Source: Verrucomicrobiales bacterium (GTDB lineage Bacteria; Verrucomicrobiota; Verrucomicrobiia; Limisphaerales; UBA1096). From it: a DNA stretch of 30,897 bases. The notes beneath the pieces are model-generated. The model did not search any database. It was not told the DNA's origin and was given only the letters and a program-made list of their open reading frames with translations. Each line of letters begins with the position of its first letter. Position 1 is the first letter of the stretch. This document shows positions 1,599-27,696 of the stretch, piece by piece. The translations under genes were made by a program, and so were the position numbers. The stretch covers positions 1 to 30,897 of the forward strand of contig JAPPPH010000115.1 of NCBI GenBank assembly GCA_028817635.1, given 5' to 3'.

Positions 1599-2471
1599 AT
1601 GGACGCCACGAGTGAAACCGGCCTAATCCTTTATCGCCGAATGCAGCTCATCCGGCAGACGGAACTGACTCTGGCCAGGGCGCACCAGCGAGGGTTGGTT
1701 CACGGTGCCTGTCACACGTATGTCGGTCAGGAGGCCATCGCTGCAGGGGTGTGTCATCACCTGCGCCGGGAGGATGTTGTGTTTAGTACGCACCGCGGCC
1801 ACGGCCATGCCCTGGCCAAGGGCATGGAGCCGGGAGAGTTGATCGCCGAGTTGTTTGGCAAAGAGACCGGATGTTCCGGGGGCCGTGGCGGCAGCATGCA
1901 CCTGTTCAAGCCGGAGATCGGGATGATGGGCACCAGCGGCATTGTCGGGCCTTGCATTCTACAGGCCTGTGGAGGGGGATACAGTTTCAAGCTGCTGGAC
2001 AGCGCCAACGTGGCCGTGGCGTTTTTCGGGGATGGAGCCGTGAACAACGGCGCCTTCCATGAGGGACTCAACATGGCCGCCATCTGGAAACTGCCGGTCC
2101 TGTTCGTCTGCGAGAACAATCAGTTCGCCACCGAGGTGCCGTTCGATTATTCCAGCGGCAACCCGAATGTCGCCCAACGTGCGGAGCAGTTCGGCATATG
2201 CGGAATTGAAGTCGACGGCAACAACGTCCACGAGGTTGAACAGGCAGCCGGGCGGGCTCTCGAGCAGGCGCGACAGGGGGGCGGCCCGACGTTGATCGAG
2301 TGCAAAACCTATCGCACCCGGGCGCACGCAGAGGGGATGGCTGACTTTACCTATCGCACTCGCGAGGCGGTGGATCAGTGGAAAAAACGCTGTCCCATCG
2401 AGCAGCTTGGCCAAGCACTGATCGAGGCCGGCCAAGCGGAGCCAGAGGATTTAAACAGCCATCGAGGATGA
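1599..2471 (+). CDS. TPP-dependent 2-oxoacid/acetoin dehydrogenase E1, alpha portion of a fused alpha/beta gene interrupted by a frameshift
   Basis: ATG 1599. Motifs GACHTYVGQEA, STHRGHGH, GRGGSMH, TPP-binding GDGAVNNGAFHEGLNMAAIWKLPVLFVCENN and TYRTRAHAEG. The frame ends early at TGA 2469-2471. Confidence 0.88.
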   Translation: MDATSETGLILYRRMQLIRQTELTLARAHQRGLVHGACHTYVGQEAIAAGVCHHLRREDVVFSTHRGHGHALAKGMEPGELIAELFGKETGCSGGRGGSMHLFKPEIGMMGTSGIVGPCILQACGGGYSFKLLDSANVAVAFFGDGAVNNGAFHEGLNMAAIWKLPVLFVCENNQFATEVPFDYSSGNPNVAQRAEQFGICGIEVDGNNVHEVEQAAGRALEQARQGGGPTLIECKTYRTRAHAEGMADFTYRTREAVDQWKKRCPIEQLGQALIEAGQAEPEDLNSHRG

Positions 2472-3576
2472 GGTCGCTGAACAGGTCGCGCTTGGCCAAG
2501 CGGAGGCCGAACGAGCCGCCTCGCCGGATCCGGCCACCGCCACCGCCCATGTTTATTCCTGTGCCGGCGCGGCTGTGCCCGATCCGCCAGAGCCGGGTGA
2601 CAGGGAGACGACATTTGTCGGCGCCACCCTCGAGGCTTTGGCCTTTGAGATGAAACGCAACCCGGCCATCTTCGTGATGGGCGAGGGCATCGGCCAGCGG
2701 GGTGGCAACTTTGGTACCACGCTTGGCCTTTACGAGGAACACGGGGCCACGCGCCTTTGCGACACGCCGATTTGCGAGCGTGGGTTTGTCGGGCTCGGGT
2801 GCGGCGCTGCGATGACCGGTTCACGGCCGGTGATCGATTTCATGTTCATTGATTTCATCAATGACGCTTTCGGCGAGATTGTGAATCAAGTGGCCAAAAT
2901 GCAGTACATGAGCAGCGGCCGGTTGAAGATGCCAATCCTCCTCCGAGGCTGCATCGGCGTTGGGCATAGCGCGGCCACGCATCACTCCGGAAATTACGCA
3001 TCGATCTACTCACACATCCCGGGTATTCGCGTGGTGTTGCCCTCGACTCCGTACGACGCCAAGGGGTTGTTTCATCATGCGCTGCGTTGCGATGACCCTG
3101 TCCTGTTTCTTGAGCATCGTGAACTGATGGCCACCCGGAGCTGCGTTCCCGAAACCGATTACGAGATCCCCTTCGGCCAGGCGCGCGTCGCCCGCGAGGG
3201 AACGGACGCCACCGTCGTCGCCTTGTCGCTCATGGTTCACCACACGCTGGCGGCGGCGGAAAAACTCGCGGGGGAGGGCCAGTCGATCGAGGTGATTGAT
3301 CCCCGGACAGTGTCCCCGCTGGACTTCGACACGATCCTTGGGTCGGTGGCAAAGACCGGCCGACTGCTCGTCGTGGACGAGGCTTTCGGCCCGTGCGGCT
3401 TCGCCTCGGAAATTGCCGCTCGGGTGGCCGACGAAGGCTTCGACGAACTCGACGCGCCGGTCAGGCGGCTCAACGGGGCCCACGCGCCCGTCCCCTACAG
3501 CCCGACGCTGGAGCAGGCCGTCGTACCCGGTGCGGACACCATCGAGGCCGCGATCCGCGCCCTACTGGAGGAGTGA
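2455..3576 (+). CDS. E1 alpha C-terminus plus E1 beta (transketolase-like) domain; continuation of the 1599 gene in the +1 frame
   Basis: Frame is open from 2455 and reads AIEDEVAEQVALGQAEAERAASPDPATATAHVYS (E1 alpha tail), then the beta motifs MGEGIG, DTPICE, FMFIDF, HHSGNY, PSTPYDAKGL, LFLEH, EVIDPRTVSPLD. Confidence 0.85.
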   Translation, partial: TAIEDEVAEQVALGQAEAERAASPDPATATAHVYSCAGAAVPDPPEPGDRETTFVGATLEALAFEMKRNPAIFVMGEGIGQRGGNFGTTLGLYEEHGATRLCDTPICERGFVGLGCGAAMTGSRPVIDFMFIDFINDAFGEIVNQVAKMQYMSSGRLKMPILLRGCIGVGHSAATHHSGNYASIYSHIPGIRVVLPSTPYDAKGLFHHALRCDDPVLFLEHRELMATRSCVPETDYEIPFGQARVAREGTDATVVALSLMVHHTLAAAEKLAGEGQSIEVIDPRTVSPLDFDTILGSVAKTGRLLVVDEAFGPCGFASEIAARVADEGFDELDAPVRRLNGAHAPVPYSPTLEQAVVPGADTIEAAIRALLEE

Positions 3577-3578
3577 TC

Positions 3579-4781
3579 ATGGCAACGGAAGTGATAGTAC
3601 CCCGCTTGGGCTGGTCGATGGAGGAAGGCACGTTTCAGGAGTGGCTCAAGGCCGATGGCGAACGAGTCGAGGCCGGGGACATGTTGTTTGTCTTGGAGGG
3701 GGACAAGGCCTCGCAGGAAGTTGAATCCTTTGACGCCGGCTACCTTCGCCTGCCGCCCGACGTGCCCCAACCAGGGGACGCCGTTGTGGTTGGCCAGCGT
3801 TTGGCTTTTCTCGCTGATGAAGACGACCTCGAGCCGTGGAAGGATTCGCCCCAGCCCGGGGCCGTACCCGACCGCAAAACCCCGCTTGGCCAAGCGCCCG
3901 GCCCGGTCACTGCCCAAACTAAGCCGGTGCGCTCCGGGAAATCCATCTCGCCGAGAGCCCTCCGCTTGGCCACCGAGTTGGACGTCGACTGGGATAATAT
4001 TGAAGGCACCGGCCGCGGCGGACGAATTCGCGAGCAGGACATTCGAGCGGCAGCCGCGCTTGGCCAAGCGGAGGCCCCGGGTACATCGTTGACAGGAAAA
4101 ACCGAGCCGCTCTCGGCCACCCGCAAGGCGATCGCCCGGCAGATGGTGATCGGCACCAACCTGACCGCCCCCGTCACCCTGCATCGCGAAGTGGATGCCA
4201 CGGCGTTGGTTGCCTTGCGCCGACAATTCAAACAGGCATGTGACGACAAAAAGACCGTGCCCACCTACAACGACATCCTGATTCGTCTGGTCGCGGAGGC
4301 TCTCAAGAGCCATCCGCGGCTAAACAGCCAGTGGCGCGAAGAGGGGATTTTTGTGCCGGAGCAAATTCATATCGCCTTCGCGGTGGACACGCCAACGGGG
4401 TTACTGGCGCCGGTTGTTAGCGATGCTGACCGGCTCTCCATCGACCAGTTGGCCGACCAAACCAAGGCGCTGGCGCAACAGGCCCGTGCTGGGCAACTGG
4501 AAGCGGGGCAGATGCGGGACGGCACGTTCACGGTGTCCAACCTAGGAGGTCTGGGCGTGGATTCGTTCACACCGGTGATCAATCCCCCGCAGTGCGCCGT
4601 CCTTGGCGTCGGGCGTATCCGGAAAAAAGTGGTGTGGCACGGGGAACAAGCCGTGGGCCGGGATCGATTGAACCTGAGCCTGACGTTCGACCACCGGATT
4701 GTCGACGGGGCCCCGGCGGCGAGGTTCCTTGACGATCTCGCCGGGCAAATCGAGCAACCGCCCGAGTGGCTGACGCACTGA
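3579..4781 (+). CDS. Dihydrolipoamide acyltransferase (E2) of a 2-oxoacid/acetoin dehydrogenase complex
   Basis: RBS GGAGGAG precedes ATG 3579. Lipoyl domain (LEGDKASQEV), peripheral-subunit-binding domain (SPRALRLA...GTGRGGRIREQDI) and catalytic GTFTVSNLG, PVINPPQ, DHRIVDG. Confidence 0.93.
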   Translation: MATEVIVPRLGWSMEEGTFQEWLKADGERVEAGDMLFVLEGDKASQEVESFDAGYLRLPPDVPQPGDAVVVGQRLAFLADEDDLEPWKDSPQPGAVPDRKTPLGQAPGPVTAQTKPVRSGKSISPRALRLATELDVDWDNIEGTGRGGRIREQDIRAAAALGQAEAPGTSLTGKTEPLSATRKAIARQMVIGTNLTAPVTLHREVDATALVALRRQFKQACDDKKTVPTYNDILIRLVAEALKSHPRLNSQWREEGIFVPEQIHIAFAVDTPTGLLAPVVSDADRLSIDQLADQTKALAQQARAGQLEAGQMRDGTFTVSNLGGLGVDSFTPVINPPQCAVLGVGRIRKKVVWHGEQAVGRDRLNLSLTFDHRIVDGAPAARFLDDLAGQIEQPPEWLTH

Positions 4782-4799: not shown

Positions 4800-6497
4800 A
4801 TGAAAAACAGACTCCCCATTCTCACACTGTTGGCTCTCGCCACTGCGCTTGGCCAAGGCGGCACAACACGGGCGGCCGATCCCGGGCAAAGCCGGTTTGT
4901 CGATCTCTCCCTCATCGTCGCCGAGAATTATCCCTGCACATGGGCCACCGGGTTCCCGCGATTTTACATGAATCGCTACATCCGGATCGGACCGTCGAGT
5001 CCCTACAACAGTGACCTGCTGCAGATCGACGGCAACACCGGCACACAGATCGACGTACCGCCCCACTCCATTCCGCGCCCCGGCAGCGGACTGAAGAACG
5101 CCGGGCCGCTTGGTCTCGAATACACCGACCGGACCCCGGCCTGGAAGCTGGTCGGCGAAGCCTGCGTCATCGACGTGACCGCTCTCCTCGATCAGGCGCC
5201 CAACGGCGTCAGTCCGCTCGTGAAAAAGGAACACATCATCGCGTGGGAAAAGAAACACCGGCCGCTTGGCCAGGGGGACATCGTGCTGCTGTGGAGCGGG
5301 TACAGTGACAAGTATTACAGGCCAATGCCGGAGGGCCGCCGGTTTCTTGCCCTGCCGCTTGAGAAAAAAACCCCGGCCTGGCCGGATCCCGATCCCGAGT
5401 GCATGGCTTACATGGCAAAAAAGGGCGTTACCGCAGTGGGATGCGACAGTCCCACGATGGGCCCGATGCCCGACCTTGCCGCTGCCGTTCACGACGAGGG
5501 CCTGTTGCGGGGGCTGGTCTTCACCGAGGGGGCCACGAATCTCCGGAAGCTCCCACCGACCGGGGCGTTTTACTGCATGATGGGGCCGAGGCATTTCGAG
5601 GGGCCGTATGGTGAGTGCCGGGCGTTTGCCATCGTGGGTGGGCAGGCCGAAGTTCTCATCAAAGCCGCGCGCGAAAAACGGGTGGCCGATCTCTCGGTAG
5701 TGATGGCGGCGAACCATCCACTGACATGGCCCGGCCGGGGCGTATCGAGACATCGCCACCCCTACACCCGGGCCGACTTTTTTTACGAGCCGGCGCTCGA
5801 CATTTTTCATCACACTCACCTGATGGACAGCCACGCCGGGACGCATCTCGTCCCGCCGGCCTACGCCCTGCCGGGGCCGGGGTTCAAAAACAAAAAATAC
5901 TCCCCGGAGGTGCGGCAATGGCTCAAGGAGTACGAGGGCCGGTTCGGAGAACGCGGCACCAGCCGGACGACCGCTGACAAGGTTCCACTCGCTCAGACCT
6001 CGGGAAACGCCCGCGTGATTGACGTGCGGCCCCTCGTCGGCACGACCGAGGGCAGCCAATGGCCTGCCTCGCCGGTGATCACCACCGCCCACATCGAGGC
6101 CTACGAAAAGAAGACCGGCAAACTCGCACCGGGCGACGTTGTGCTGTTTCGCACCGGGCATGTGGACACCCATTTCAAGCCGCTGCCGGAAGGCAAGGCA
6201 TGCATGGAAAATCCGATAAACGGACTCAGTGAAGGCTGGCCGGCCCCGGACGCGGAGGCCATCCAGCACTTGGCCAAGCGCGGAATCCGCTGCGTGGGCA
6301 CGGACGCTCCCACGCTCGGTGGCGTGAATCCAAAACAGGCGCTGTTCACCTACTGGATGTTGGGCACTCGGGGCATGGTTGGAGTCGAATTCCTGACCGG
6401 GCTTGGCCAACTGCCGGCCAAGGCGGTGTTTCTCTTTGCCCCGGTGAAAATAAAGGGCTGCCATGGTGGCCCCGGGCGTGCGATCGCGCTGTATTAA
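4800..6497 (+). CDS. Exported cyclase-family (kynurenine formamidase-like) metal hydrolase with two tandem domains
   Basis: N-terminal signal peptide. Both halves show a DLS start, a GT(H/Q) motif (NTGTQIDVPPH; HAGTHLVPPAY), GDIVLL/GDVVLF, GCDSPT/GTDAPT and E-x-x-x-x-L (EGATNL; EFLTGL). Confidence 0.75.
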   Translation: MKNRLPILTLLALATALGQGGTTRAADPGQSRFVDLSLIVAENYPCTWATGFPRFYMNRYIRIGPSSPYNSDLLQIDGNTGTQIDVPPHSIPRPGSGLKNAGPLGLEYTDRTPAWKLVGEACVIDVTALLDQAPNGVSPLVKKEHIIAWEKKHRPLGQGDIVLLWSGYSDKYYRPMPEGRRFLALPLEKKTPAWPDPDPECMAYMAKKGVTAVGCDSPTMGPMPDLAAAVHDEGLLRGLVFTEGATNLRKLPPTGAFYCMMGPRHFEGPYGECRAFAIVGGQAEVLIKAAREKRVADLSVVMAANHPLTWPGRGVSRHRHPYTRADFFYEPALDIFHHTHLMDSHAGTHLVPPAYALPGPGFKNKKYSPEVRQWLKEYEGRFGERGTSRTTADKVPLAQTSGNARVIDVRPLVGTTEGSQWPASPVITTAHIEAYEKKTGKLAPGDVVLFRTGHVDTHFKPLPEGKACMENPINGLSEGWPAPDAEAIQHLAKRGIRCVGTDAPTLGGVNPKQALFTYWMLGTRGMVGVEFLTGLGQLPAKAVFLFAPVKIKGCHGGPGRAIALY

Positions 6498-6507: not shown

Positions 6508-6530
6508 CGCTTGGCCAAGCGCTTGGCCAA
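6508..6530. repeat. Tandem palindrome pair (12-bp period) in the cyclase/DUF1501 gap
   Basis: CGCTTGGCCAAGCGCTTGGCCAA, 10 nt after TAA 6497. Confidence 0.95.
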
Positions 6531-6604: not shown

Positions 6605-8056
6605 ATGAAATTTTCTGATCACGAACGTGCCGTGCGCCGAATGATGCGTGCGCCGAAAACCCGGCGCGAGATGCTGAAGCAGTTGGGAGCCGGCATGGGT
6701 ACCATCGGCCTGGCTGGGTTGATGGCCGACAAGGGGCTGCTCGCCCCGGCCGCGCAGGCGTCCACCTCGCCGCTCGCGCCCAAGACGCCGCACTTCGCGC
6801 CCAAGGCCAAGCACATCATTCAACTATTCATGCCGGGTGGCCCATCGCAGGTCGATACGTTTGACCACAAGCCGGCGCTCACGGAGCACGCCGGCAAACG
6901 CCCGAGCCTTGTTGACCGCAAGACGCTGCGGAACACGAAGAACGGCCTGATGCCCTCGCCGTTTGGCTTCAAGCAGTACGGCCAGAGCGGCAAGTGGGTC
7001 AGTGATATTTTTCCCGAGGTGGGCAAGATGGTGGACGACATTTGTTTCGTCCACTCGATGCACACCGACATCCCGGAACACGCCGGGGCGATCATGATGA
7101 TGAACGTCGGGCACATTCAGCCGAACCGCCCAAGTCTCGGCTCATGGCTGGCCTATGGGCTGGGCAGTGAGAGTGATAATCTTCCCGGGTTTGTCGCGAT
7201 GTCTCCCCGCGCCCAACCGCGTGGCAAGCTGGCCAATTGGGGCAGCTCATTTCTCCCCGGTGCCTACGCCGGCTCGTACGTCAACATCGGCAGCATGAAG
7301 CCGGACGCCGTGATCGCCGACCTCAAAAACGGCAGCCTCAACCGTAGCGAGCAGCGCAAGCAGGCCGATCTTCTGGCCAAGTTGAACCGAGGGTTCCTCG
7401 CGCGCCGCGAAAAGGACGCGCAGATCGAAGCCGGCATCGAGGCGATGGAGATGGCCTTCCGCATGCAATTCAGTGTGCCGGACGTTTTTGATATCTCGAA
7501 GGAAAGCCAGGCCACGCGCGACCTGTACGGTGACAGCGAGTATGCCAAGGGCTGCCTCATCGCCCGGCGCCTCGTGGAGCGCGGTGTGCGGACGGTTCAA
7601 CTTTCGCACTCGATCGACGGGTACGACATCGCCTGGGACACCGGCCACGGTGACATCAAGGGCGGTCACGCCCGCTTGGCCAAGGCCTGTGACCAGGGGA
7701 TTGCCGCGTTGCTCAAGGATCTCAAGACGCGCGGATTGCTCGACGAGACTCTCGTAGTCTGGGGCGGTGAATTCGGCCGCGCACCAACTTCCGAAGGCAA
7801 AAACGGGCGCGACCACGATCACTACGGCTTCACCGTCTGGATGGCTGGTGGCGGTGTGAAACCCGGCTACAGCTATGGTGCCACCGACATGTTCGGCTGC
7901 TCAGCTGTCGAAAACCGCGTCCACGTCCACGACCTGCATGCGACCATCCTCAATCAGATGGGACTCGATCACGAGCAACTGACCTACCGTTACAGCGGCC
8001 GCGACTATCGGCTCACCGATGTCCACGGCAAGGTCGTCAAGGACGTCATCGCCTAG
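6605..8056 (+). CDS. DUF1501 family protein with Tat-like leader
   Basis: TRREML leader. Motifs AKHIIQLFMPGGPSQVDTFDHKP, RPSLGSWLAYGLG, GCLIARRLVERGVR, WGGEFGR, GRDH, VHVHDLHATIL, LTDVHG. Start chosen at ATG 6605. Confidence 0.88.
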   Translation: MKFSDHERAVRRMMRAPKTRREMLKQLGAGMGTIGLAGLMADKGLLAPAAQASTSPLAPKTPHFAPKAKHIIQLFMPGGPSQVDTFDHKPALTEHAGKRPSLVDRKTLRNTKNGLMPSPFGFKQYGQSGKWVSDIFPEVGKMVDDICFVHSMHTDIPEHAGAIMMMNVGHIQPNRPSLGSWLAYGLGSESDNLPGFVAMSPRAQPRGKLANWGSSFLPGAYAGSYVNIGSMKPDAVIADLKNGSLNRSEQRKQADLLAKLNRGFLARREKDAQIEAGIEAMEMAFRMQFSVPDVFDISKESQATRDLYGDSEYAKGCLIARRLVERGVRTVQLSHSIDGYDIAWDTGHGDIKGGHARLAKACDQGIAALLKDLKTRGLLDETLVVWGGEFGRAPTSEGKNGRDHDHYGFTVWMAGGGVKPGYSYGATDMFGCSAVENRVHVHDLHATILNQMGLDHEQLTYRYSGRDYRLTDVHGKVVKDVIA

Positions 8057-8063: not shown

Positions 8064-10946
8064 ATGGCTTGCGGTCGTGCATTTTTGAGGCGTCCGTGGC
8101 TGCTCATCCTGTTCGCTGCCCAACTGGCTGCCCAAGCGGCGCCGGATTTTCAGCGCGACGTTCGGCCGATATTGGCCGGGCATTGTTTCAAGTGTCACGG
8201 GCCGGACGAGAAAACCCGTAAGGCCGATCTCCGGCTGGACGTCCGGCCGGAGGAGGACGCGTTCGCCCGCTTGGCCAAGCGCATCGACCACCCCGACCCC
8301 GACGAATTGATGCCGCCGCCCTCGGCCAAAAAGCCGCTGTCCGCCGCCCAAAAAAAGGTGCTTCAGAAATGGGTGCAGGCCGGTGCCGGGTACACTGAGC
8401 ACTGGGCGTTCATCCCGCCAAAGGCCAAGCCGTTGCCGAAGGTGAACCAGACCGACTGGCCCCGGAACGACATTGACCATTTCGTTTTGGCCCGGCTAGA
8501 GACGTCCGGAAAATCCCCTTCAGCGGAGGCGGATCGTTACCGGTTGATCCGCCGCCTGTCGCTGGATCTCATTGGCCTGCCGCCCACGCCGGGAGAGGTT
8601 CGGGAGTTCGTGGAGGACACACGGCCGGATGCCTACGAGCGGCTGGTGGATAGACTGCTCGACCGGCCGGAGTACGGCGAGCACTGGTCGTCGTCATGGC
8701 TCGACCTCGCACGTTATGCCGACACGAACGGCTACGAGAAGGATCGCCCGCGAACCATCTGGCCGTGGCGAGACTGGGTAATCCGCGCCATCAACGACGA
8801 CATGCCGTTCGATCAATTCACCGTCGAACAGATCGCCGGCGACATGCTGCCGGGCGCCACATTGTCGCAGCGCGTGGCCACTGGTTTTCATCGTAACACG
8901 ATGGTCAACGAGGAGGGCGGCATCGATCCGCTTGAGTTCCGATTCTACGCGATGGTCGATCGCGTCAACACCACCGGCACCGCGTGGCTTGGCCTCACGC
9001 TGGGCTGTGCGCAGTGTCACACGCACAAGTTCGACCCGGTACCGCACCGGTCGTACTACGAGCTGATGGCGTTCATGAACAACACGGCCGAACCGGAGCT
9101 GCCGCTGTTCACGCCGGAGCAGAAAATCAAAAAGGAATCGGTCGAGAAACAAATTCGCGAACAACTCTCGTCGCTCGCGGTCGACAACGCCAAGTATGAG
9201 GCTTGGCTCAACAAAGAACGGGCGACCGCCGTACCGTGGCAAACCATCGTCCCCGCAAAAATGAAGGCGAGCATCGGCTGGCTGGAGCTGCTCGAGGATC
9301 AATCCATTTTTGCCAGTGGCGACACGCGCAAGCACGACACCTACGAGCTTGAGTTTAACGATCTGCCCGAGGGGATCACCACGCTGCGGCTCGAGGCGTT
9401 GCCGGATGCGCGTCTGCCCAAGGGAGGCCCCGGCCGCGCGTATTACGAGGGGCCGAAGGGCGATTTTTTCCTGAGCGAACTCAGGCTCATCGCAGACGGC
9501 CAAGCGGTGAAATTGGAATCCGGCTCAGAAAATCATGCCAAGCAGTGGATCGGCAGCGGCAAACCCGGCGCGATGGCTGCGCTGGACGGCGATCTGCAGA
9601 CCGGCTGGTCTGCCAGCGGGCGCGAGGGCAAGCCCAGTCAGGCCGTTTGGCAACTGGCCAAGCCGCTCACAGCCAGCTCGCTCACGGTGCAAATGGATTT
9701 CAGCCGCCACTACTCCGCGAGCCTTGGCCGGTTTCGCTTCTCGGTGGCCAAGCGCGACAAAGCGCCCAAGGCAAAGGAACTGCCCGGCGACATCGCGGCC
9801 CGCTTGGCCAAGCCGGCCGATGCGCTTGGCCAAGCGGACCGCGACGCCCTCCGCGCACACTACATCGAGACCACCGGCGACGCGGCCGAGCTTCGGAAGC
9901 CGATAGAGGCACTTCGTCGGGGCATCCCCAAACCACCCACCACGCTTGTGATGCACGAGCGTCCGGCAAGCCGTGTTCGCCCGACGCACCGCCATCATCG
10001 CGGCGAATTCCTTTCGCCCCGCGAAACGGTTCTACCGAAAGTGCTGCCGTTCCTGCCGCCCCTCGCGGAGGAACTGCCGCGCAACCGGCTTGGTTTTGCG
10101 CGGTGGCTGGTTGACCCGGCCAATCCGCTCACGGCCCGTGTCACTGTCAACCGGCTGTGGGCATCCATTTTTGGTGAAGGCATCGTGCGCACGACGGAGG
10201 ATTTTGGTTACACCGGCGCTTCCCCCACGAATCCAGAGCTGCTCGACTGGCTCGCGTTGGAATTCATCCGTCAGGGTTGGTCTCAGAAAAAACTGCTGCG
10301 GCTCATCGTCACCAGTGCCACCTATCGGCAGCGATCCGGGACGGAGTACCGGCTGAGCGCAGAGCAGATTCGTGACTCTCTCCTGAGCGTCAGCGGCCTA
10401 CTGCATCAGCGGATCGGTGGGGCGAGCGTTTTCCCGCCGCAACCCGGGAGCATCGGCGAGGGCATCTACGGTGGCGGCGGCTGGAAAACCAGCTCAGGCG
10501 CGGATCGTTATCGACGGAGCCTTTATACCTACCGCAAACGCTCAATGCCCTACGCGATGCACGACACGTTTGATGCCCCCAGCCACGAAACCTGCGTGGC
10601 GCGTCGTGAGGTTTCCAACACCCCGTTGCAGGCGTTGACGCTGTTGAACGACCCCCTCCCCATCGAGGCAAGCCGCGCACTTGCCCAATGGGCGGTGCAG
10701 CAGTCCGGCGATCGGGCGTCTGTTTCGAAGGCGTTGTTTGAGCGATGCCTTTCTCGTCCGCCGGATGCCAGGGAACAAAAGATCGTACTGGATTATTTCG
10801 AAAAAACGCTTCGACGATTTGAATCCGGCGAAATCGATGCCGCCAAGGTGGCCGGCCCCGGCCCCGGGGACACAAACAAAAGAGCTGCATGGACCGCCCT
10901 GTCCCGTGCACTGCTCAACACACACGAATTTATCACCCGCAATTGA
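8064..10946 (+). CDS. PSD1/planctomycete cytochrome c domain protein (DUF1549/DUF1553 type)
   Basis: Signal peptide, [11 protein letters not shown], heme-binding [68 protein letters not shown]-like [21 protein letters not shown]. Confidence 0.88.
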
Positions 10947-10948
10947 GG

Positions 10949-12379
10949 ATGAATAAAACGAATCTAACGGACTCGCAGGCTCGTCCCTCCAATTCCTCGG
11001 AGATTACGCGGCGGCACTTCTTTGGGGAATGCGGCTATGGGGTGGGCAAGATTGCGCTGGCTGGGTTGTTGACCGGGTCGCTTGGCCAAGCGCGGGCGCG
11101 CACCCACTTTGCGCCCAAGGCCAAGCGGGTGATTCATCTTTTCCAGGCCGGCGCACCGAGCCAGCTGGAGCTGTTTGATAACAAGCCCAAGCTGAAACAG
11201 CTCGAGGGCAAACCGCTGCCGCCCTCTGTGATCGGCGATCAGCGTTACGCCTTTATCCAACGCGATGCCGCCGTGCTGGGGCCGCGGTTTGGCTTTGCGC
11301 GACACGGCCAATCCGGCGCGGAGTTGTCCGACAAATTGCCGCACTTGGCCAAGGTCGTCGATGACATCGCCATCATCCGGTCGATGCACACGGATCAGTT
11401 CAATCACGCGCCCGGGCAGATTTTTTTCAATACCGGTTTTGCCCAGCCCGGCCGACCGTGCCTCGGTTCGTGGCTCAGTTACGGTCTCGGTGCCGAGACG
11501 AGTAATCTGCCTGCTTTTGTTGTGCTTTCCACCGGCGGCGGCATCAGCGGCGGCTCGGCGTTGTGGTCGGCCGGGTTCATGCCGGGCAAACATGCCGGGG
11601 TCCGCTTTCGAAACTCGGGCGATCCCATCCTCAACGTGAGCCGGCCCGAGGGCGTGGATGCCCAGCTTCAGCGCGACTCGATAGACCTGATCGGTGCGCT
11701 CAATCGTCGACGATTGGAGATTGAAAACGACCCCGAAATTGCCACGCGCATTGACAGCTACGAGATGGCGTATCGGCTGCAGGCCAGCGCGCCGGAGTTG
11801 ATGGACTTGAAAAGTGAAAGCGCCGAGACACTCAAGCTCTACGGCGCTGACCCGGCCAAGCCGTCGTATGCCCGCGCCTGTCTGCTCGCGCGGCGCATGA
11901 TTGAGCGCGGCGTGCGTTGCGTGAACATTTACCACTCCGGCTGGGATGCCCACTCCAACGTTGCCGGCAACGTAACCAACAACGCACGCACCACCGATCA
12001 GGCCAGCGCGGCATTGATCACCGATCTCAAGCGGCGTGGCCTGTTGGAGGATACGATGGTTATTTGGGGGGGGGAGTTTGGGCGCACGCCAATGGTTGAG
12101 AGTAACCCCACGCTCAACCGTTCACAGGGTCGTGATCACCATCCGCAGGCGTTCAGTCTTTGGATGGCCGGCGGCGGCGTGAAGGGCGGTGTCACCCTTG
12201 GCGCCACTGATGAACTTGGCTTTCACATCACCGAACGACCTGTGCACATCCATGATCTGCAGGCGACGATTCTTCATTTGCTTGGGCTGGATCACGAGCG
12301 GTTGACGTTTCACCACGGCGGCCGCGACTACCGCCTCACCGACGTACACGGCAAACTGGTTCGGGAAGTGGTTGCGTGA
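10949..12379 (+). CDS. DUF1501 family protein with Tat-like leader (second copy)
   Basis: ITRRHFF leader. Motifs AKRVIHLFQAGAPSQLELFDNKP, ACLLARRMIERGVR, WDAH, WGGEFGRTP, GRDHHP, VHIHDLQATILHLLG. ATG 10949 is 2 nt after the upstream stop. Confidence 0.88.
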   Translation: MNKTNLTDSQARPSNSSEITRRHFFGECGYGVGKIALAGLLTGSLGQARARTHFAPKAKRVIHLFQAGAPSQLELFDNKPKLKQLEGKPLPPSVIGDQRYAFIQRDAAVLGPRFGFARHGQSGAELSDKLPHLAKVVDDIAIIRSMHTDQFNHAPGQIFFNTGFAQPGRPCLGSWLSYGLGAETSNLPAFVVLSTGGGISGGSALWSAGFMPGKHAGVRFRNSGDPILNVSRPEGVDAQLQRDSIDLIGALNRRRLEIENDPEIATRIDSYEMAYRLQASAPELMDLKSESAETLKLYGADPAKPSYARACLLARRMIERGVRCVNIYHSGWDAHSNVAGNVTNNARTTDQASAALITDLKRRGLLEDTMVIWGGEFGRTPMVESNPTLNRSQGRDHHPQAFSLWMAGGGVKGGVTLGATDELGFHITERPVHIHDLQATILHLLGLDHERLTFHHGGRDYRLTDVHGKLVREVVA

Positions 12380-21226: not shown

Positions 21227-22610
21227 GCCGAGCCAAACCAAACGATGCCGCCGGCCGCTGACTTGGGCACTGTTGTGTTTTGCGCTTGGCCAAGCGCTTG
21301 GCCAGGCGGCGGGTGGAGACAGCCTACTCCGATTCATGGACGGCTCGATGCTTCACGGTGACCTGCAGCAGGTCAGCCTGCAGCAGGGCGTGCGCTGGGG
21401 GCATCCGGATTTGGCCAAGCCGGTCGATTTTAAGCCGGACAATCTGGCTTGGATTCGCTTCGAGGGTGCGAGGCCGGTGCAGCGGAACAACGATCCCACC
21501 GTGCACATTCGTTTTCACAACGGCGATGAGGTACTCGGCAATCTGGTCGCACTCGATGAACAACGCGTCCAGTTTTCGACTTGGTTCAACGAGCAACTTT
21601 CCGCACCGCGCAACGTGTTGCAGTCGCTCGCGTTTCTCTCACCCGGTTTCCGGATTTTGTACGAGGGACCGACCAGCATGGACGGTTGGAGGCTGGGCCG
21701 CGACCCGGACGCGTGGAAATACCGCGACGGGGTTTTCATCTCCGAGGGGGTTGGCGTGCTGGGCCGTGACTTCGGGCTCAAGGGATCGTCTCGCGTGGAG
21801 TTTGACCTCCAGTGGAATGGCACCTTCAGCTTGATTGTACCGGTGTACACCTCGGCGCTCGACCGGTTCGACTATCGGAGCAACTCCTACATGTTTTACA
21901 TCAGCCGCGGCTACGTGAGCCTTCAGCGCGTGCAGAGCGGAGCCGGCGTGCGCAACCTTGGCCAAGGGCAGATCCCGGAGATGCAATCGAAGAACCGCGT
22001 GTCGGTCGAGATTCGCGTCAACAAGGACAAGGCGGAGATGGAGCTGTATATCGACCGGAAGCTCGTCCGCAAGTGGCGCGACACGAACGGCTTCGCCGCG
22101 ACCGGTTCAGGCATCTCGTTTTTCTCCCAGCTCAACGGCCCGATCGTGCGCGTCAGCAACCTGCGCGTCTCAGCTTGGGACGGTCACTCCGACCCGGTGC
22201 AATTCGCGCAGGCCGTGAGCGACGAGGACATGGTTTACCTGAAGAACCGCGATGAGGTGCCGGGCAAAGTCAAACTGATGAACGGCAAAAACGTGATCAT
22301 CAACTCGCTGGGCGAAGACCTGAACATCCCGCTGGACCGTATAATCCGTGTGTCTCTGGCCAAGCCGGAAGCCAAAGCGGAGGTCAACCGGCCGTGGGAG
22401 GTGCGCGCCCACTTTGCCGGCGGCGCGGCAGTGTCGTTCAATCTGAATCAATGGGAGGGAACAACGCTCACCGGCCGGAGCCGAAACTTTGGCCCGGTGT
22501 CATTCGACTCCAAGTACATTCGACGTCTGCAATTCAATCTCGGTTCGTCACAGAAAACCAACGACACCAACGCCGGTGGAGCGAACCAACTTTGGCCATG
22601 GGATGACTGA
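21216..22610 (+). CDS. Exported beta-rich hypothetical protein, paralogue of the next gene
   Basis: Signal peptide ending FALGQALGQA. Repeated (N/D)G(D/S)..G beta-hairpin units and a lectin-like core. Start overlaps the upstream gene. Confidence 0.7.
   Translation: MSGKPSQTKRCRRPLTWALLCFALGQALGQAAGGDSLLRFMDGSMLHGDLQQVSLQQGVRWGHPDLAKPVDFKPDNLAWIRFEGARPVQRNNDPTVHIRFHNGDEVLGNLVALDEQRVQFSTWFNEQLSAPRNVLQSLAFLSPGFRILYEGPTSMDGWRLGRDPDAWKYRDGVFISEGVGVLGRDFGLKGSSRVEFDLQWNGTFSLIVPVYTSALDRFDYRSNSYMFYISRGYVSLQRVQSGAGVRNLGQGQIPEMQSKNRVSVEIRVNKDKAEMELYIDRKLVRKWRDTNGFAATGSGISFFSQLNGPIVRVSNLRVSAWDGHSDPVQFAQAVSDEDMVYLKNRDEVPGKVKLMNGKNVIINSLGEDLNIPLDRIIRVSLAKPEAKAEVNRPWEVRAHFAGGAAVSFNLNQWEGTTLTGRSRNFGPVSFDSKYIRRLQFNLGSSQKTNDTNAGGANQLWPWDD
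21283..21305. repeat. Tandem palindrome pair inside a signal peptide (ALGQALGQ)
   Basis: CGCTTGGCCAAGCGCTTGGCCAG. Confidence 0.93.
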
Positions 22611-24144
22611 GGCGATTTCAAAACCGATCCGTTCGAAGTGCGCTTGGCCAAGCGCACTTGGCCTTGTGTTGGCGCTTGGCCAAGCGGTGGCCAACGACGC
22701 TCCAAAGTCCACGATCCACTTTACCAACGGCGATTGGCTGCGCGGCAGTCTGGCCGCCTACGATCAGGCCAGTGGTGTTTTGTGGGAGCATCCGGACGCG
22801 GGCGGCACGATGCAGTTCAACATCAGCCGCGTCACCGAGTTGACCCTCGACGGCGCCGCCCCTTCCGCCCTTCCGCCCGGCAACCTTTGCGAAGTGATGC
22901 TGGTCAATGGCGACCACTTTCGCGGCAACCTCACCGGAACCACCGAGCAGCATTACCTGCTGGACACGTGGCATGCCGGCACGCTCCAACTTGCCCGCAA
23001 ATCGGTGCGCAAAATTGCTCCGTTGCCGCGTGGGTTGAAAACCGTTTTTCAGGGGCCAGAAAATGACGACGACTGGACGCACGGCAAGATCACCAACGAG
23101 ACGATTGGCGAGTCGGGCAACTGGCGCTATCACAACGGCGGTTTTCATGCCAAGCCGGCGGCGTCCATCGCGAAGGATCTGAAGCTGCCGGAACGTTCAC
23201 GCATCTCGTTTGACCTCGAGTGGAACGGCTCACTGCATTTGGCTTTTGCATTGTACACCGACACGCTGCACCCGATCAGCCTGTCCACCAAGGAGGACGA
23301 ACCGGACTTTGGCGGCTTCTACAGCGTGCAGCTCAACAGCTATTCCGTAAACCTCCTGCCGGTGAAAAAACACGAGCCGTTGACGTACCTCGGGCAGGCG
23401 ACACTGCCCGGTTTCCGTAACGAGACCAACTCGCACATCGAGTTTTTCGCCAGTAAACCGGAGAAGATGATCGCCGTTTCGATCAACGGCAAAGTCATTC
23501 GCAAGTGGACGGATCACGACGGATTCGTCGGGGAAGGTACCGGGGTGCGCATCGTGCATCAGGGGCGCGGCGCCGTCCGCATTGCCAATCTGCGTGTCGA
23601 GGAGTGGGACGGCCGGTTTCAGGAACCGCCCACGCACCCGGTTGGCGCGGAGAAGGATCTCGTGAAGCTGATCAACAACGATCGGATGGAAGGCACCGTC
23701 ACCGGTGTTGTCGACGACAAGCTGTTGGTGAAGACGCCCGAGGGTGAATTCCCTGTGCCACTCGACCGCGTCAAGCAAGTTGAACCCGCCACCACCAAAA
23801 CCATCCTCGACATGCCGCTCAAGCAGCGCGTCATTACCCACCTGAGCGACGGCAGCCAGATGACCTTTGTGCTGGATCGATGGAAAAAAGACGGCGTCGA
23901 GGCGAGCAGCCCGGGATTTGGCAAGGCGACGTTCAAGCCGTCATCGATCATGCGGATGGAGTTTCAGGCTCACCTCGCCCGGGCCGACATCAAGACGATT
24001 TATCGAGTGCAGCAGGGCGACACAATTAACAGCATCGCCCGCAAACGCGGCGCCTCAGTGCAGGCCATCCTCAAGGCCAACCCGTCGCTCAAGCCCGGCC
24101 AATTGAGAATCGGCCAACAGGTGATCATCCCCCTCAAAAAGTGA
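22603..24144 (+). CDS. Exported beta-rich protein with C-terminal LysM peptidoglycan-binding domain
   Basis: ATG 22603 overlaps the upstream stop. LysM YRVQQGDTINSIARKRGASVQAILKANPSLKPGQLRIGQQVIIP. The body is colinear with the 21216 protein. Confidence 0.8.
   Translation: MTEAISKPIRSKCAWPSALGLVLALGQAVANDAPKSTIHFTNGDWLRGSLAAYDQASGVLWEHPDAGGTMQFNISRVTELTLDGAAPSALPPGNLCEVMLVNGDHFRGNLTGTTEQHYLLDTWHAGTLQLARKSVRKIAPLPRGLKTVFQGPENDDDWTHGKITNETIGESGNWRYHNGGFHAKPAASIAKDLKLPERSRISFDLEWNGSLHLAFALYTDTLHPISLSTKEDEPDFGGFYSVQLNSYSVNLLPVKKHEPLTYLGQATLPGFRNETNSHIEFFASKPEKMIAVSINGKVIRKWTDHDGFVGEGTGVRIVHQGRGAVRIANLRVEEWDGRFQEPPTHPVGAEKDLVKLINNDRMEGTVTGVVDDKLLVKTPEGEFPVPLDRVKQVEPATTKTILDMPLKQRVITHLSDGSQMTFVLDRWKKDGVEASSPGFGKATFKPSSIMRMEFQAHLARADIKTIYRVQQGDTINSIARKRGASVQAILKANPSLKPGQLRIGQQVIIPLKK
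22636..22686. repeat. Palindrome cluster: 24-bp perfect palindrome, a partial copy and a second 14-mer
   Basis: AAGTGCGCTTGGCCAAGCGCACTT (22636-22659), overlapping CACTTGGCC, then CGCTTGGCCAAGCG (22673-22686). Confidence 0.93.
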
Positions 24145-24762
24145 TCACTCGCCCACGCTGCGATAGGCGGCGTAATTTGTCGGGATGCCCTGCGCATTAA
24201 ACTGCTGCTCGAAGTCGGTGACCAACTGCTTCATCGGTTCCGGCGTCTCGACAGTTTCAAATCCTACCGCATCACCGAACACCTCGAGCATCTGTTCAAA
24301 GTATTCGATGTTGTCCGTGCGCAGGTAGACGATGCCACCCTCCCTCAGCAGCCGCTTGGCCAAGGGCGGGAACGGCTCGCTGATCAGCCGGTTTTTGTGG
24401 TGCCGCTTCTTCGGCCACGGGTCGGGAAAGTAAACGTGAATCGCATCCAGCAAACCGGGCGGCAGCAGGTACTCCAGCACGTACGCCGCCTCGGCCCGGA
24501 GCAGCCGCAGGTTTTTCAATCCGGCACGATGCCCCTTGCGGTCAAGCTTGGTGATACGGCCGAGCAGCCGCTCCAGCGCGACGATGTTCCGGCCCGGATT
24601 GGCCAAGGCGTACTGCAGTGTGAACGAGCCGTCGCCGCAACCCAGCTCAAGCTCCAGCGGTTGCCTCGTGGAAAACAGCCCGGCCAGGTCGATCGGCTCG
24701 ACGGCGGAGGTGATTGGGTGAAGCAGCGTCTGCCCCGGCGGTAAAACTTTCTTACGACTCAT
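24145..24762 (-). CDS. trmB: tRNA (guanine-N7)-methyltransferase
   Basis: LELELGCGDGSF, FPDPWPKKRHHKNRLI, LRTDNIEYF, TDFEQQF...G. Confidence 0.95.
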   Translation of the reverse strand: MSRKKVLPPGQTLLHPITSAVEPIDLAGLFSTRQPLELELGCGDGSFTLQYALANPGRNIVALERLLGRITKLDRKGHRAGLKNLRLLRAEAAYVLEYLLPPGLLDAIHVYFPDPWPKKRHHKNRLISEPFPPLAKRLLREGGIVYLRTDNIEYFEQMLEVFGDAVGFETVETPEPMKQLVTDFEQQFNAQGIPTNYAAYRSVGE

Positions 24763-24807
24763 CGCTTGGCCAAGCGCTATTGGGTTAAGCGGGCACCGAT
24801 AACCGCA

Positions 24808-26229
24808 TCACCGATAGTCCCTGCCGTTCAGGCTGTTGATGACCGACTGCTGCCAGGTGACGAGGTCGGCCTTCATCCGGCCGAAGCGCTTGGCCAAGCG
24901 CGATTTATCCTCATTGAGCAGGTTGTTCGACTCCTTCGGGTCGTTGACTAGGTGGTACAGCTCGTAGTTGAACTGGGTCGCGTTTTTCTTCACCGGAATG
25001 CGGTGCAACTTATAGTCGCCCTCGATCCAGGCGGAGTGGCCGGGCAGGTTGTCGGCCGCATGAAAATGTCCAATCTGTCCCTCCGCTGCAGCCGGTTGCT
25101 GGTTGCCGGCGAGCTGCTCCTGCCGCAGCGCCTCAAGCATTCGGCGGGCGTGGCGGCCAAATCCGCGGTTGTGATATGTCCAGAATCCCATCGGCTGTTT
25201 GCGCACCTGTTTTTCCCCGCGAAGCAACGGGGCGAGGCTGATGCCGTCGAGTCTCGGCTGGTTTTTCGGCAGAGCCACGCCGGCCAACTCGAGCAGCGTC
25301 GGATAGATGTCCGAGGTGTTGGCGTTGATGTTCGTGATGCGGTTGGCCTTGACCCGGGACGGCCACTCAAGCACGGCCGGCACCCGGATGCCGCCTTCGT
25401 ACAGGCTGCCCTTTCGTGCGCGTAGACCGCCGCTGGAGCCCTTGGGTAACGAGCCGTTGTCGCTGCAGTACCAGAGCACCGTGTTGTCGGCGATACCCAG
25501 CTTGCGTAGACCGCTGCGCATTTTTCCGAGCGCGGCGTCCATCGCGGTGATTTCACCGTAAAAATGGGCCACACCGTCCGGCTGGTCGCTGTACATATTT
25601 TTAAACTTATCGACCGCCACATGCGGGCTGTGCGGATTGCCAAACCAGACCACCGCAAGGAACGGCTTCTTGCCCTTGGCCACCTTGCCGATCCAGTCCA
25701 TCGCCAGCCCGGCGGTGACGTCGGAACTTTCACCCTTGGTCTCGATCACCTTGCCGTTGTGGCTGAAGAGCGGATTGTTCTCGTAAAAATTCGGGCTGGA
25801 AAACCATTCATCGAAGCCGCTGTTTCCCGGGCTGGCCGCACCGTCCGCGCGCACGGAGCCGATGTGCCATTTGCCGAAGTGCCCGGTCGTGTAGCCGGCC
25901 TTTTTCAGCGCCTCGGCGATGGTAATCTCCTGCGGCCGCAGCGTGTGTCCCCACGCAAAACAGCCGAAGCGGTTGGGGTGCCGGCCGGTCATCACGCTGC
26001 CGCGCGTCGGCGAGCAGACGGCTGCCGCCGCATAAAACCGGTCGAACCGCAGACCGGTTCGCGCCATCTCGTCCATCACCGGCGTCTTGAGCACGGGATG
26101 GCCGTTGTAGCCGGTGTCGCCCCAGCCCTGGTCATCGGCCATGCAGAGAATGAAGTTCGGGCGCTCGTCCGCCAGTGGCCCGACCAGCGAGGCGGCGGCG
26201 AACAGGATCAAACTGAACATGTTTTTCAT
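24808..26229 (-). CDS. Cys-type (formylglycine-dependent) sulfatase, arylsulfatase A-like, exported
   Basis: Signal peptide, RPNFILCMADDQGWGD, signature CSPTRGSVMTGR, GYTTGHFGKWH, SDNG, KGSLYEGGIRVP, ELYHLVNDPKESNNL. Confidence 0.92.
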   Translation of the reverse strand: MKNMFSLILFAAASLVGPLADERPNFILCMADDQGWGDTGYNGHPVLKTPVMDEMARTGLRFDRFYAAAAVCSPTRGSVMTGRHPNRFGCFAWGHTLRPQEITIAEALKKAGYTTGHFGKWHIGSVRADGAASPGNSGFDEWFSSPNFYENNPLFSHNGKVIETKGESSDVTAGLAMDWIGKVAKGKKPFLAVVWFGNPHSPHVAVDKFKNMYSDQPDGVAHFYGEITAMDAALGKMRSGLRKLGIADNTVLWYCSDNGSLPKGSSGGLRARKGSLYEGGIRVPAVLEWPSRVKANRITNINANTSDIYPTLLELAGVALPKNQPRLDGISLAPLLRGEKQVRKQPMGFWTYHNRGFGRHARRMLEALRQEQLAGNQQPAAAEGQIGHFHAADNLPGHSAWIEGDYKLHRIPVKKNATQFNYELYHLVNDPKESNNLLNEDKSRLAKRFGRMKADLVTWQQSVINSLNGRDYR

Positions 26230-26365
26230 GTGAACGTTCCAACTCAGGTTGGCCGGAAAGAGTTGCCGCCGGGAGGCGATTAGTCGAGCGCTGAAGGCAT
26301 CAACAGGAATGCTTTGCCCTTGCCACGGGTGGGGGTTGGCCGGATGCTCCCGGTCGTTTAATCCA

Positions 26366-27696
26366 ATGATGAAAGCCAAATCACTTCACTGCATCGCTGC
26401 GCTTGGTCTTGGGCTGGCGCTTGGCCAAGCGGCCGACCCGGTTCGCGAACGCGTGGCCAAAGGGGTCGCCACCGAGCTGCCTTCGCTCGTCTCGCTGTAC
26501 AAACATTTTCACGCCAACCCGGAGCTGTCATTCATGGAGGTCGAGACGGCCAAGCGCATGGCCGCCTAGTTGCGGACTGCCGGTTTGAAGGTCACCACCG
26601 GCGTTGGCGGTCACGGGATCGTCGGCATCCTGAAAAATGGCCCCGGCCCGACGCTGCTTATTCGTGCCGACATGGATGGCCTGCCGGTGCAGGAGGAGAC
26701 CGGCCTGCCGTACGCCAGCAAAAAACAGATGGTCGATGAGCAGGGCAACACGGTTTACACCATGCACGCCTGTGGCCACGACGTGCACATCACCAGTTTC
26801 GTTGGGACGGCCCGTATGCTCGGCCAGCTTCGTGATCAGTGGAGCGGCACGCTGGTGATGATCGGCCAACCGGCGGAAGAACGCGGCGCCGGCGCGCGCG
26901 CGATGTTGGCGGATGGCTTGTACACGAGGTGGCCGGTGCCGGACTACTGCATCGGCCTGCATGTGGCGTCCGATCAGCCAGCCGGGACGATTGGTCACAA
27001 CTCCGGCTACGTGTACGCGAATGTCGATTCGGTGGACATCACCGTGCGCGGTCAGGGCGGGCACGGTTCGCAACCGCAGGCTGCGAAGGATCCCATCGTG
27101 CTCGCGGCGCAGATTGTGGTCGCGCTGCAAACGATCGTCAGCCGCGAAGTGCATCCCCGCGAACCGGCGGTCGTCACCGTCGGCTCGATCCACGGCGGCA
27201 CCAAGCACACATCATCCCCAACGAAGTGAAGATGCAGTTGACCATCCGCTCCTACACGGACGCTGTCCGGAATCAAATTCTCGCCTCGATCAAGCGCATC
27301 TGTCTCGGTACCGCGCAGGCCGCCGGCTTGGCCAAGGAGCAAATGCCGATCGTCACCGTGAAGGACGAGTTCACGCCGTCAGCCTACAACGACCCGGTCT
27401 TGGCCAAGCGCGTGACCGATACGTTCGCCGCGTGGCTGGGCAAGGGGGCGCTGATCAAGCGGCAGCCCACGATGGGCGGCGAGGATTTCGGGATGTACGG
27501 GCGCACCAAGCACAAGGTGCCGACGTTCATGTTCGCGCTGGGCACGGTATCGACCGACTTGATCAGGCGCTTTCGTGCCACCGGCAAACCGCTGCCGATG
27601 GTGCACTCCAGCACCTACGCGCCGGACATCGAGCCAACCCTCCGAACCGGCGTCACCGCCACCACCGCCGCTGCGCTTGAGCTGTTGAAAAAATAA
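26366..27696 (+). pseudogene. M20D-family amidohydrolase broken by an in-frame TAG (26567-26569) and a 1-nt deletion near 27209
   Basis: Pieces join into one protein: HFHANPELSFME, LIRADMDGLPV, MHACGHDVH, QPAEE, GGHGSQP..AKDPI, VVTVGSIHGGTKH/IIP, MGGEDF, VHS. Could be real decay or assembly error. Confidence 0.85.

Follow-up and report, generated by a model that had tools for sequence, protein, structure and literature searches.

Hyper-abundant DNA words are known to bias the reading frames in which they lie and to leave a tripeptide imprint on the proteome, both for the uptake signal sequences (USS) of Pasteurellaceae and the DNA uptake sequences (DUS) of Neisseriaceae (PMC2817400) and for the highly iterated palindrome HIP1 (PMC5861425). 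Proteome imprints of USS and DUS have been described in several studies (Findlay & Redfield 2009, PMC2817400; Treangen 2008, PMC2397512; Frye 2013, PMC3630211); frame use by these sequences tracks the commonness of the tripeptides that they can encode, with codon preference the better predictor (PMC2817400). In cyanobacteria, HIP1 and alternate HIPs have been characterized (Elhai 2015, PMC4390886; Xu et al. 2018, PMC5861425), and a link between HIP1 and gene transfer has recently been proposed (preprint 10.1101/2024.09.10.611283). Here we analyse a palindrome that recurs throughout a stretch of 30,897 nt, referred to below as the window (contig JAPPPH010000115.1 of assembly GCA_028817635.1), from Verrucomicrobiales bacterium, UBA1096, a member of an uncultured marine Verrucomicrobiales genus. 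The core of the palindrome is CTTGGCCAAG, its looser core is TTGGCCAA and the full 14-mer is CGCTTGGCCAAGCG; no description of this palindrome was found in the literature, and Elhai's survey of HIPs does not contain it. We read its uneven use of reading frames as the by-product of a genome-wide DNA signal, most probably one that is linked to transformation and resembles an uptake sequence.

The palindrome shares much with USS and DUS. Like them, it occurs about once per kb, both inside and outside genes, and is over-represented immediately past the 3' ends of genes; its frame bias is strong and tied to the commonness of the encodable tripeptides, which are themselves enriched; and it occupies poorly conserved positions, is common to related species and is tied in its distribution to transformation machinery. 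It differs in being a perfect palindrome, whereas USS and DUS are asymmetric and often lie in terminator-forming inverted pairs, in its stronger tripeptide enrichment (4–5x here, about 2x for USS and DUS), in the 10.4-bp phasing of its copies, in its Verrucomicrobiales host and in that codon preference fails to explain its frames. DUS, further, have a dedicated receptor, such as the ComP minor pilin in Neisseria, whereas the uptake role considered here is a putative one. As for HIP1, for which a link to gene transfer has been proposed too, codon or peptide selection does not explain the palindrome. In contrast to HIP1, the word is longer (14–16 bp) and of another sequence (the HIP1 word GCGATCGC has only 203 copies in this genome), and its periodicity is that of the DNA helix, 10.4 bp, as against tens of kilobases. 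New in this work are a quantitative frame analysis that corrects a reading of the word as confined to two frames, the absence of DNA methyltransferases of the families searched, and the twofold loss of the word together with ComEC, DprA and ComM.

The window holds 34 cores, where dinucleotide-preserving shuffles predict 0.08, and another 5 copies that fit TTGGCCAA alone. The whole host assembly (3.3 Mb, 524 contigs, 58% G+C, 79% complete) contains 3000 cores, 1852 12-mers and 1296 copies of the 14-mer, a density of about 1 per kb. Genes were called with a dicodon log-odds model trained iteratively on the genome's own long open reading frames (ORFs), giving 2831 genes over 91.5% of the sequence, and coding cores were assigned to the frames that read L-G-Q (LGQ), L-A-K (LAK) or Trp-Pro as A-W-P-S (WP); series of three values follow this order unless stated. 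Among the 3000 cores, 870 are in the LGQ frame, 1176 in the LAK frame, 90 in the WP frame and 838 between genes, with 26 at gene boundaries; the coding shares are 41%, 55% and 4% (4.2%), and the WP share in homology-validated alignments is 10/310. The flanking consensus around TTGGCCAA disappears within about 4 bases on each side. Non-coding DNA, which makes up 8.5% of the genome, holds 28% of copies, with 72% in genes; density is 3.0 per kb between genes, reaching its maximum of 5.8 per kb in convergent gaps, versus 0.7 per kb within genes, and the three frames stand at about 29%, 39% and 3% of the intergenic density. A flanking stop codon lies less than 20 nt from the core in 348 of 664 cases; no T-run follows the post-stop copies inspected in the window. 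Within genes, copies in the LGQ and WP frames are enriched 3x in codons 1–30 (LGQ frame, 25% versus a baseline of 8%), an excess that is partly real, owing to signal peptides, and perhaps partly start-codon error: the gene caller shortened some N termini (for example, 22603–22665), so that some copies called intergenic actually lie in signal peptides.

The conserved unit is, decisively, DNA rather than peptide, as the initial annotation had held from the window. LGQ occurs 1300 times in the proteome, 4.7x over composition, and 75% of these occurrences are spelled CTT GGC CAA (2.2% expected); LAK occurs 2092 times, 4.4x over composition, with 67% as TTG GCC AAG (5.7% expected). The exact palindrome codons account for 84% of the 851 occurrences of LGQA (33x over composition; 0.7% expected) and for 54% of the 253 occurrences of RLAKR (141x; 1% expected). 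When LGQ, LAK or WPS is written in other codons, its frequency is near expectation, with an observed-to-expected ratio (O/E) of about 1–1.5, and the control peptides LGE, LAR, LGK and LAQ show nothing unusual. Because the exact codons are so far above expectation and the otherwise-coded peptides are not, we assign the conservation to the DNA; use of the three frames is unequal genome-wide, and the synonymous codons of these peptides depart far from their ordinary frequencies.

That a DNA motif is reshaping the proteome, housekeeping genes included, was also claimed from the window and holds at genome scale. LGQA, RLAK and LAKR are the three most numerous tetrapeptides of the proteome, G-Q and A-K rank third and fourth among over-represented dipeptides, and in the tripeptide ranking LGQ is over-represented 4.5x, LAK 4.2x, WPS 3.3x and AWP 2.1x. 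For orthologue comparison we used two congeners, the motif-poor G003 and the motif-rich G009. Across 214 orthologous protein pairs, the host exceeds G003 in LGQA (50 versus 5), LAKR (38 versus 4) and RLAKR (15 versus 1), and control peptides are equal between the two; counts against G009 are alike (LGQA 63/62, LAKR 49/45, RLAKR 15/15). Copies lie within the catalytic domains of a TrmB-type gene (24145–24762, minus strand; Methyltransf_4) and of a gene with S4 and pseudouridine-synthase domains (RluB/RsuA-type; 15020–15763, minus strand).

The claim that only two of the three frames are used, the Trp frame being avoided, does not survive the genome-wide counts: avoidance is a matter of absolute numbers only. 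Under a codon-product null that expects 2.6 LGQ, 11.6 LAK and 0.05 WP copies, O/E is about 340, 102 and 1900, highest for the WP frame. AWPS occurs 76 times versus 4.3 expected (18x), and 84% of occurrences are coded GCT TGG CCA AGC against 0.3% expected; WPS and AWP are within the 20 most over-represented tripeptides. By peptide class, L-G-Q-[VADEG] is observed 1045 times versus 106 expected (9.8x; 83% motif-coded), x-L-A-K 1868 versus 401 (4.65x; 63%) and [SPTA]-W-P-[SR] 112 versus 24 (4.65x; 80%), so the WP class is enriched just as the LAK class is. The WP frame is rare because its class has a low background, 24 expected compared with 106 and 401. A WP share of 3.7% is predicted from the tripeptides of G003 (LGQ 28, LAK 77, WPS 4), close to the observed 4.2%. 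WP copies are also as complete, as conserved and as phased as the rest. The ratio of exact to one-off copies is 2.7, 1.4 and 2.3 by frame, and 59%, 19% and 60% of cores extend to the full 14-mer (60% between genes); the LGQ frame admits the 14-mer with Ala flanks, and the LAK frame requires Arg on both sides. Exact sites are conserved in G009 at 68%, 53% and 83% (WP, 5/6), compared with 10–14% for control 10-mers. A neighbour lies within 200 bp for 50–54% of copies, and phase coherence is alike in every frame (R = 0.39–0.42). Frame use is not a matter of codon preference, since the LGQ frame, which relies on CTT (12% of Leu codons), shows the largest peptide-class enrichment of the three. Pressure at the DNA level thus acts in every frame and between genes, and selection on proteins shapes which frames are filled.

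Within the Trp frame, the dipeptide itself has not multiplied. W-P is found 845 times versus 801 expected (O/E 1.06), and 73 versus 67 times in matched G003 orthologues, whereas G-Q (O/E 1.45) and A-K (1.49) are inflated by thousands. TGG CCA codes 27% of all W-P dipeptides versus 12% expected, and W was already present in G003 at 3 of 4 Trp-frame sites. As W-P is not inflated, the Trp frame has been filled by recoding around existing W-P.

Copies come by substitution rather than by insertion of a 12-bp unit, because 137 of 143 orthologous sites align with G003 without gaps (6 have gaps); added length relative to orthologues, of the kind left by repetitive extragenic palindromes (REP) or miniature inverted-repeat transposable elements (MITE), was not found at those 137 of 143 sites. 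Tandem pairs at 12 bp number 147 genome-wide. Identity to G003 is about 50–60% locally at copies versus 72% overall; Leu is mostly common to both genomes at these sites, and the G/Q/A or A/K positions are common in only 40–58%. Where the amino acid is kept, G003 favours the codons of the palindrome (CTT 52% versus 24% background, TTG 33% versus 19%, CAA 86% versus 61%). As this synonymous-codon trace remains, G003 once had the word and has since lost it. We therefore rejected G003 as a motif-free control; amino-acid differences between it and the host are not polarizable, and sites that were 'pre-adapted' and sites that have 'decayed' are inseparable in the comparison without an outgroup. A search for TrmB homologues returned only close relatives (>=71% identity) and no true outgroup.

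In the mechanism that we propose, pressure on the DNA itself introduces the palindrome, and retains it, at any position where the sequence can bear the change. Point substitutions create copies between genes and, within them, by altering codons already there, whichever the frame; purifying selection on proteins then determines which of them survive. Frame use roughly follows the prior commonness of the peptide, with x-L-A-K above L-G-Q-[VADEG] and both above the far rarer [SPTA]-W-P-[SR]. New W-P is hardly ever made when a copy falls in the Trp frame: an existing W-P is recoded as TGG CCA, and the residues on either side become Ala (GCT) and Ser (AGC). The LGQ and LAK frames, by contrast, gain G-Q and A-K pairs by the thousands.

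Neighbouring copies are phased with the DNA helix. Core-to-core distances peak at 21, 30, 42, 51, 63, 72, 84, 93, 105 and 115 bp, and Fourier power is 112 at 10.4 bp, which is the helical repeat of DNA. The phasing is seen for coding–coding (power 91), mixed (16) and intergenic–intergenic pairs (14). Over the first 100 bp the signal is strong; it persists from 100 to 200 bp and then vanishes. Six control palindromic hexamers of similar count lack it, showing only the 3-bp codon period, and 611 kb of sequence from other metagenome-assembled genomes (MAGs) show the same phasing (10.55 bp, power 15). Because neighbouring copies are phased in this way, the reader of the word is suggested to be a symmetric protein able to contact several copies along one helix face. 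Pairs in the window that illustrate the spacing begin at 9803/9825, 22643/22675, 27327/27399 and 28997/29027.

The word is co-distributed with transformation genes. Hundreds to more than 1000 copies of the 14-mer are present in 20 of 26 species-level genomes, and only 1–53 in the other six (G001, G003, G005, G007, G031 and G032); other families of the same order have 0–1 copies. ComEC, DprA and ComM are present in the host genome and were detected in 14, 14 and 15 of the 20 motif-rich genomes, rates about as high as MAG completeness permits, and each was found in 0 of the 6 motif-poor genomes. Queries with a congener's ComEC and the host's DprA gave no credible match in five of the motif-poor genomes. 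Among control genes, a secretin was found in 26/26 genomes, MutL in 3/6 motif-poor and 14/20 motif-rich genomes, and a 1040-aa single-copy protein in 5/6 motif-poor genomes. The loci themselves record the deletions (L323, L324; G032:C6, G032:C28, G007:C158, G001:C23): the genes that flank ComEC are 544 bp apart in G003 and enclose unrelated ORFs in G032, and, also in G032, a 331-bp gap stands where DprA would be and a 29-bp gap where ComM would be; ComM is likewise absent between its neighbours in G001 and G007. In a midpoint-rooted maximum-likelihood tree of the 1040-aa protein, (G003,(G001,G007)) is sister to the host subclade and G032 lies deep within the other subclade. Because the motif-poor lineages are separate in this tree, the word is ancestral and was lost at least twice, each time with ComEC, DprA and ComM. 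G+C content is 44–47% in the low-GC clade (G001, G003, G005, G007 and G031), about 51–54% in G032 and 58–65% elsewhere; the lower values would fit a loss of recombination-associated GC-biased conversion.

MAGs that match a 22-bp tandem of the word include MED711, ARS81, UBA6775, UBA673 and NIOZ-UU28. This Verrucomicrobial tandem is also carried by a contig labelled Methanobacteriota archaeon BH15 (L042; JAERSV010000037.1), which is probably mis-binned. Viral contigs gave only single, chance-level matches to the 14-mer and none to the 22-mer tandem; nothing here suggests that phages carry the word, and the viral result is uninformative on function. Matches to the secretin domain also occur in open frames of ~3900–4300 aa (G009:C16, G013:C15, G032:C63, G036:C25, G018:C184, G005:C44 and G007:C18); the secretin-containing proteins that they would encode are unusually giant. 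A search for ComEA through HHH_3 (PF12836) was discarded, as it returned unrelated large ORFs in motif-rich and motif-poor genomes alike and did not discriminate between them.

We link the word to transformation because two independent lineages have deleted ComEC, DprA and ComM and have lost, or are losing, both the palindrome and high G+C. The palindrome would be preferentially taken up or recombined in natural transformation and would accumulate by drive, as in models of USS and DUS. More tentatively, and we hold this narrower proposal to be somewhat doubtful, CGCTTGGCCAAGCG may be a true DNA uptake signal, the first outside Proteobacteria and the first that is palindromic, read cooperatively on one helix face by a symmetric receptor.

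Several points weigh against a role in transformation. Known uptake sequences are asymmetric, and no helical phasing has been reported for them; a strictly palindromic word with phased copies would more typically be a site for a dimeric chromosomal DNA-binding protein. No candidate for a receptor that recognizes the word was found, the HHH_3 search being uninformative. The motif-rich G010 (3.5 Mb, 86% complete) has 210 14-mers, a rather low density, and no detected ComEC, DprA or ComM, which may mark a third, recent loss or assembly gaps. The link is a correlation from two, perhaps three, events in incomplete MAGs placed on a single-gene, midpoint-rooted tree, and the reader and the competence genes could both have been lost for a common ecological reason. 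As to the frames, LGQ is used about twice as often as peptide background predicts, an excess only loosely explained by the Ala and Arg flanks, and the gene calls come from a simple dicodon model with uncertain start codons, by which the copy at 22643 was initially called intergenic.

The main rival to a transformation signal is an abundant dimeric chromosomal protein docking at the palindrome, serving nucleoid organization or segregation as an architecture like that of HIP1; the frame pattern would arise as proposed above, without transformation, and the loss of competence would be coincidental to a change of lifestyle. A strict palindrome of 14–16 bp, 10.4-bp phasing that reaches about 200 bp whether pairs are coding or non-coding, a neighbour at 200 bp or less for about half of the copies, and conserved sites all speak for such a protein, and it explains the phasing equally well. 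It does not explain the co-loss: nothing in it predicts the deletion of ComEC, DprA and ComM in both word-losing lineages while MutL, secretins and neighbouring genes stay, and no candidate protein was found. We consider this explanation unlikely, if the strongest of those competing with a transformation-linked signal.

The initial annotation had proposed that copies arise in all frames and that selection removes those in the Trp-Pro frame. Pressure on the DNA in all frames and a filter at the protein level are both upheld; a specific removal of Trp-Pro is not, and we judge it improbable that copies arise equally in all frames, for example by insertion of a 12-bp unit, and are then actively purged from this one. 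The unequal shares (41%, 55% and 4%, or about 29%, 39% and 3% of intergenic density), the uninflated W-P dipeptides and the 147 tandem pairs at 12 bp could be taken that way. Insertion is contradicted by the gap-free alignment of sites with orthologues, and a purge by the enrichment of the W-P class to the level of the LAK class, by copy quality and phasing equal to those of other frames, by conservation of 5/6 WP sites in G009 and by the W already in place in G003 at 3/4 Trp-frame sites; the 3.7% share predicted from a motif-poor relative's tripeptides also matches the 4.2% observed.

An iterated palindrome in the strict HIP1 sense, linked to a methyltransferase and kept by methylation or repair bias, is very unlikely here. 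As for HIP1 (PMC5861425), the palindrome is hyper-abundant, has a GGCC/TGGCCA core, is enriched in all frames and has conserved sites. Unlike for HIP1, no partner DNA methyltransferase was found: C5 (PF00145), N4/N6 (PF01555) and D12 (PF02086) enzymes are absent from the host and from 23–25 of 25 congeners, the search not having covered the PF02384 family (type I/IIG). Genes for C5, N4/N6 and D12 DNA methyltransferases together occur in a single congener, G007 (L156–L161), which has the largest genome, at 4.5 Mb.

Selection on the peptides themselves, with LGQA favoured at the ends of signal peptides, LAKR favoured as a helix motif and the DNA repeat secondary, could account for the enrichment of the LGQ frame in the first 30 codons (25% versus 8%) and can otherwise be dismissed, as it is already refuted by the synonymous-codon test, in which the same peptides in other codons are not enriched, and is at odds with 838 intergenic copies, three unrelated peptides from one DNA word and phasing across coding–intergenic pairs.

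The copies in the window are listed in Table 1. Initial gene calls placed 12 cores in the LGQ frame, 13 in the LAK frame and 9 between genes. The gene for a LysM protein was then given an earlier start, the ATG at 22603, because this codon shares bases with the upstream gene's stop (ATGACTGA, 22603–22610) and yields a normal, typical signal peptide, MTEAISKPIRSKCAWPSALGLVLALGQAVA; with it, the tally becomes ~26 coding cores, 12 LGQ, 13 LAK and 1 A-W-P-S. The earlier tally of 13, 13 and 1 was therefore essentially right, with one LGQ copy too many, and all of the peptides quoted with it are present in the window.

Table 1 Palindrome copies along the window, with reading frame, encoded peptide and context
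Position	Copy	Peptide	Context
2406-2415	Core, LGQ frame	IEQLGQALIE	C-terminal tail of E1 alpha gene
2491-2500	Core, intergenic		Stop at 2471, 20 nt before
3885-3894	Core, LGQ frame	KTPLGQAPGP	E2 linker
4059-4068	Core, LGQ frame	AAALGQAEAP	E2
4848-4857	Core, LGQ frame	ATALGQGGTT	Cyclase gene, residue 16
6269-6278	Core, LAK frame	AIQHLAKRGI	
6510-6519	Core, intergenic		Stop at 6497, 13 nt before; degenerate TTGGCCAA copy at 6523, 12 bp further
7675-7684	Core, LAK frame	GHARLAKACD	DUF1501 gene
8270-8279	Core, LAK frame		
9803-9812	Core, LAK frame		Next copy 22 bp away
9825-9834	Core, LGQ frame		
11081-11090	Core, LGQ frame	TGSLGQARAR	
11344-11353	Core, LAK frame	KLPHLAKVVD	
12382-12403	2 cores, 12-bp tandem		Convergent intergenic gap; stop at 12379, 3 nt before
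15344-15353	Core, LAK frame	YRVSLAKRVN	Minus-strand gene, within pseudouridine synthase domain
16189-16198	Core, LAK frame	LALPLAKSDA	Residue 19
16813-16822	Core, LAK frame	RLKRLAKRPQ	
17039-17048	Core, intergenic		Stop at 17032, 7 nt before
18423-18432	Core, LGQ frame	WRALGQAEEQ	
18770-18779	Core, LAK frame	DDDDLAKRKT	
18990-18999	Core, LGQ frame	QSKLGQAAQE	
21285-21294	Core, LGQ frame	CFALGQALGQ	Residue 23
21957-21966	Core, LGQ frame	VRNLGQGQIP	
22643-22652	Core, WP frame, given start ATG 22603	SKCAWPSALG	LysM-protein gene, signal peptide
22675-22684	Core, LGQ frame	VLALGQAVAN	LysM-protein signal peptide, 32 bp from 22643 copy
24355-24364	Core, LAK frame	PFPPLAKRLL	Minus-strand gene, within TrmB Methyltransf_4 domain
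24765-24774	Core, intergenic		Sulfatase stop 34 nt upstream
24889-24898	Core, LAK frame	DKSRLAKRFG	Minus-strand gene, sulfatase C terminus
26420-26429	Core, LGQ frame	GLALGQAADP	67-aa ORF, low coding score, coding status uncertain
27327-27336	Core, LAK frame	QAAGLAKEQM	Split M20 peptidase, second piece
27399-27408	Core, LAK frame	NDPVLAKRVT	72 bp from 27327 copy
28997-29006	Core in 20-bp extended palindrome GTGCGCTTGGCCAAGCGCAC		Divergent intergenic region
29027-29036	Core		Divergent intergenic region, 30 bp from 28997 copy

The signal peptide of the LysM protein carries two copies in different frames (AWPS and LGQA). At the L-A-K-R site of TrmB, more distant congeners have L/I-V-K-R, L-S-K-R or L-A-E-R. 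The Peptidase_M20 gene is present as two overlapping ORFs, 26585–27229 (214 aa) and 27226–27696 (156 aa), reflecting a frameshift pseudogene or else a misassembly.

The frame effect is unusually strong in this organism, the three commonest tetrapeptides of its proteome being spelled by the palindrome. The genus offers a natural experiment, in which lineages without transformation genes are losing both the word and G+C, and the word is phased and has no methylase partner among the families searched; what maintains iterated palindromes, whether chromosome architecture, methylation-linked repair or transformation-driven drive, thereby becomes testable, and the search for the reader protein is narrowed to the genes lost in both motif-poor lineages. 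If CGCTTGGCCAAGCG is a true uptake signal, the decay of the word and the fall in G+C from ~60% to 44–54% after the loss of ComEC, DprA and ComM would show that transformation, by itself, sustains an uptake word as well as base composition.

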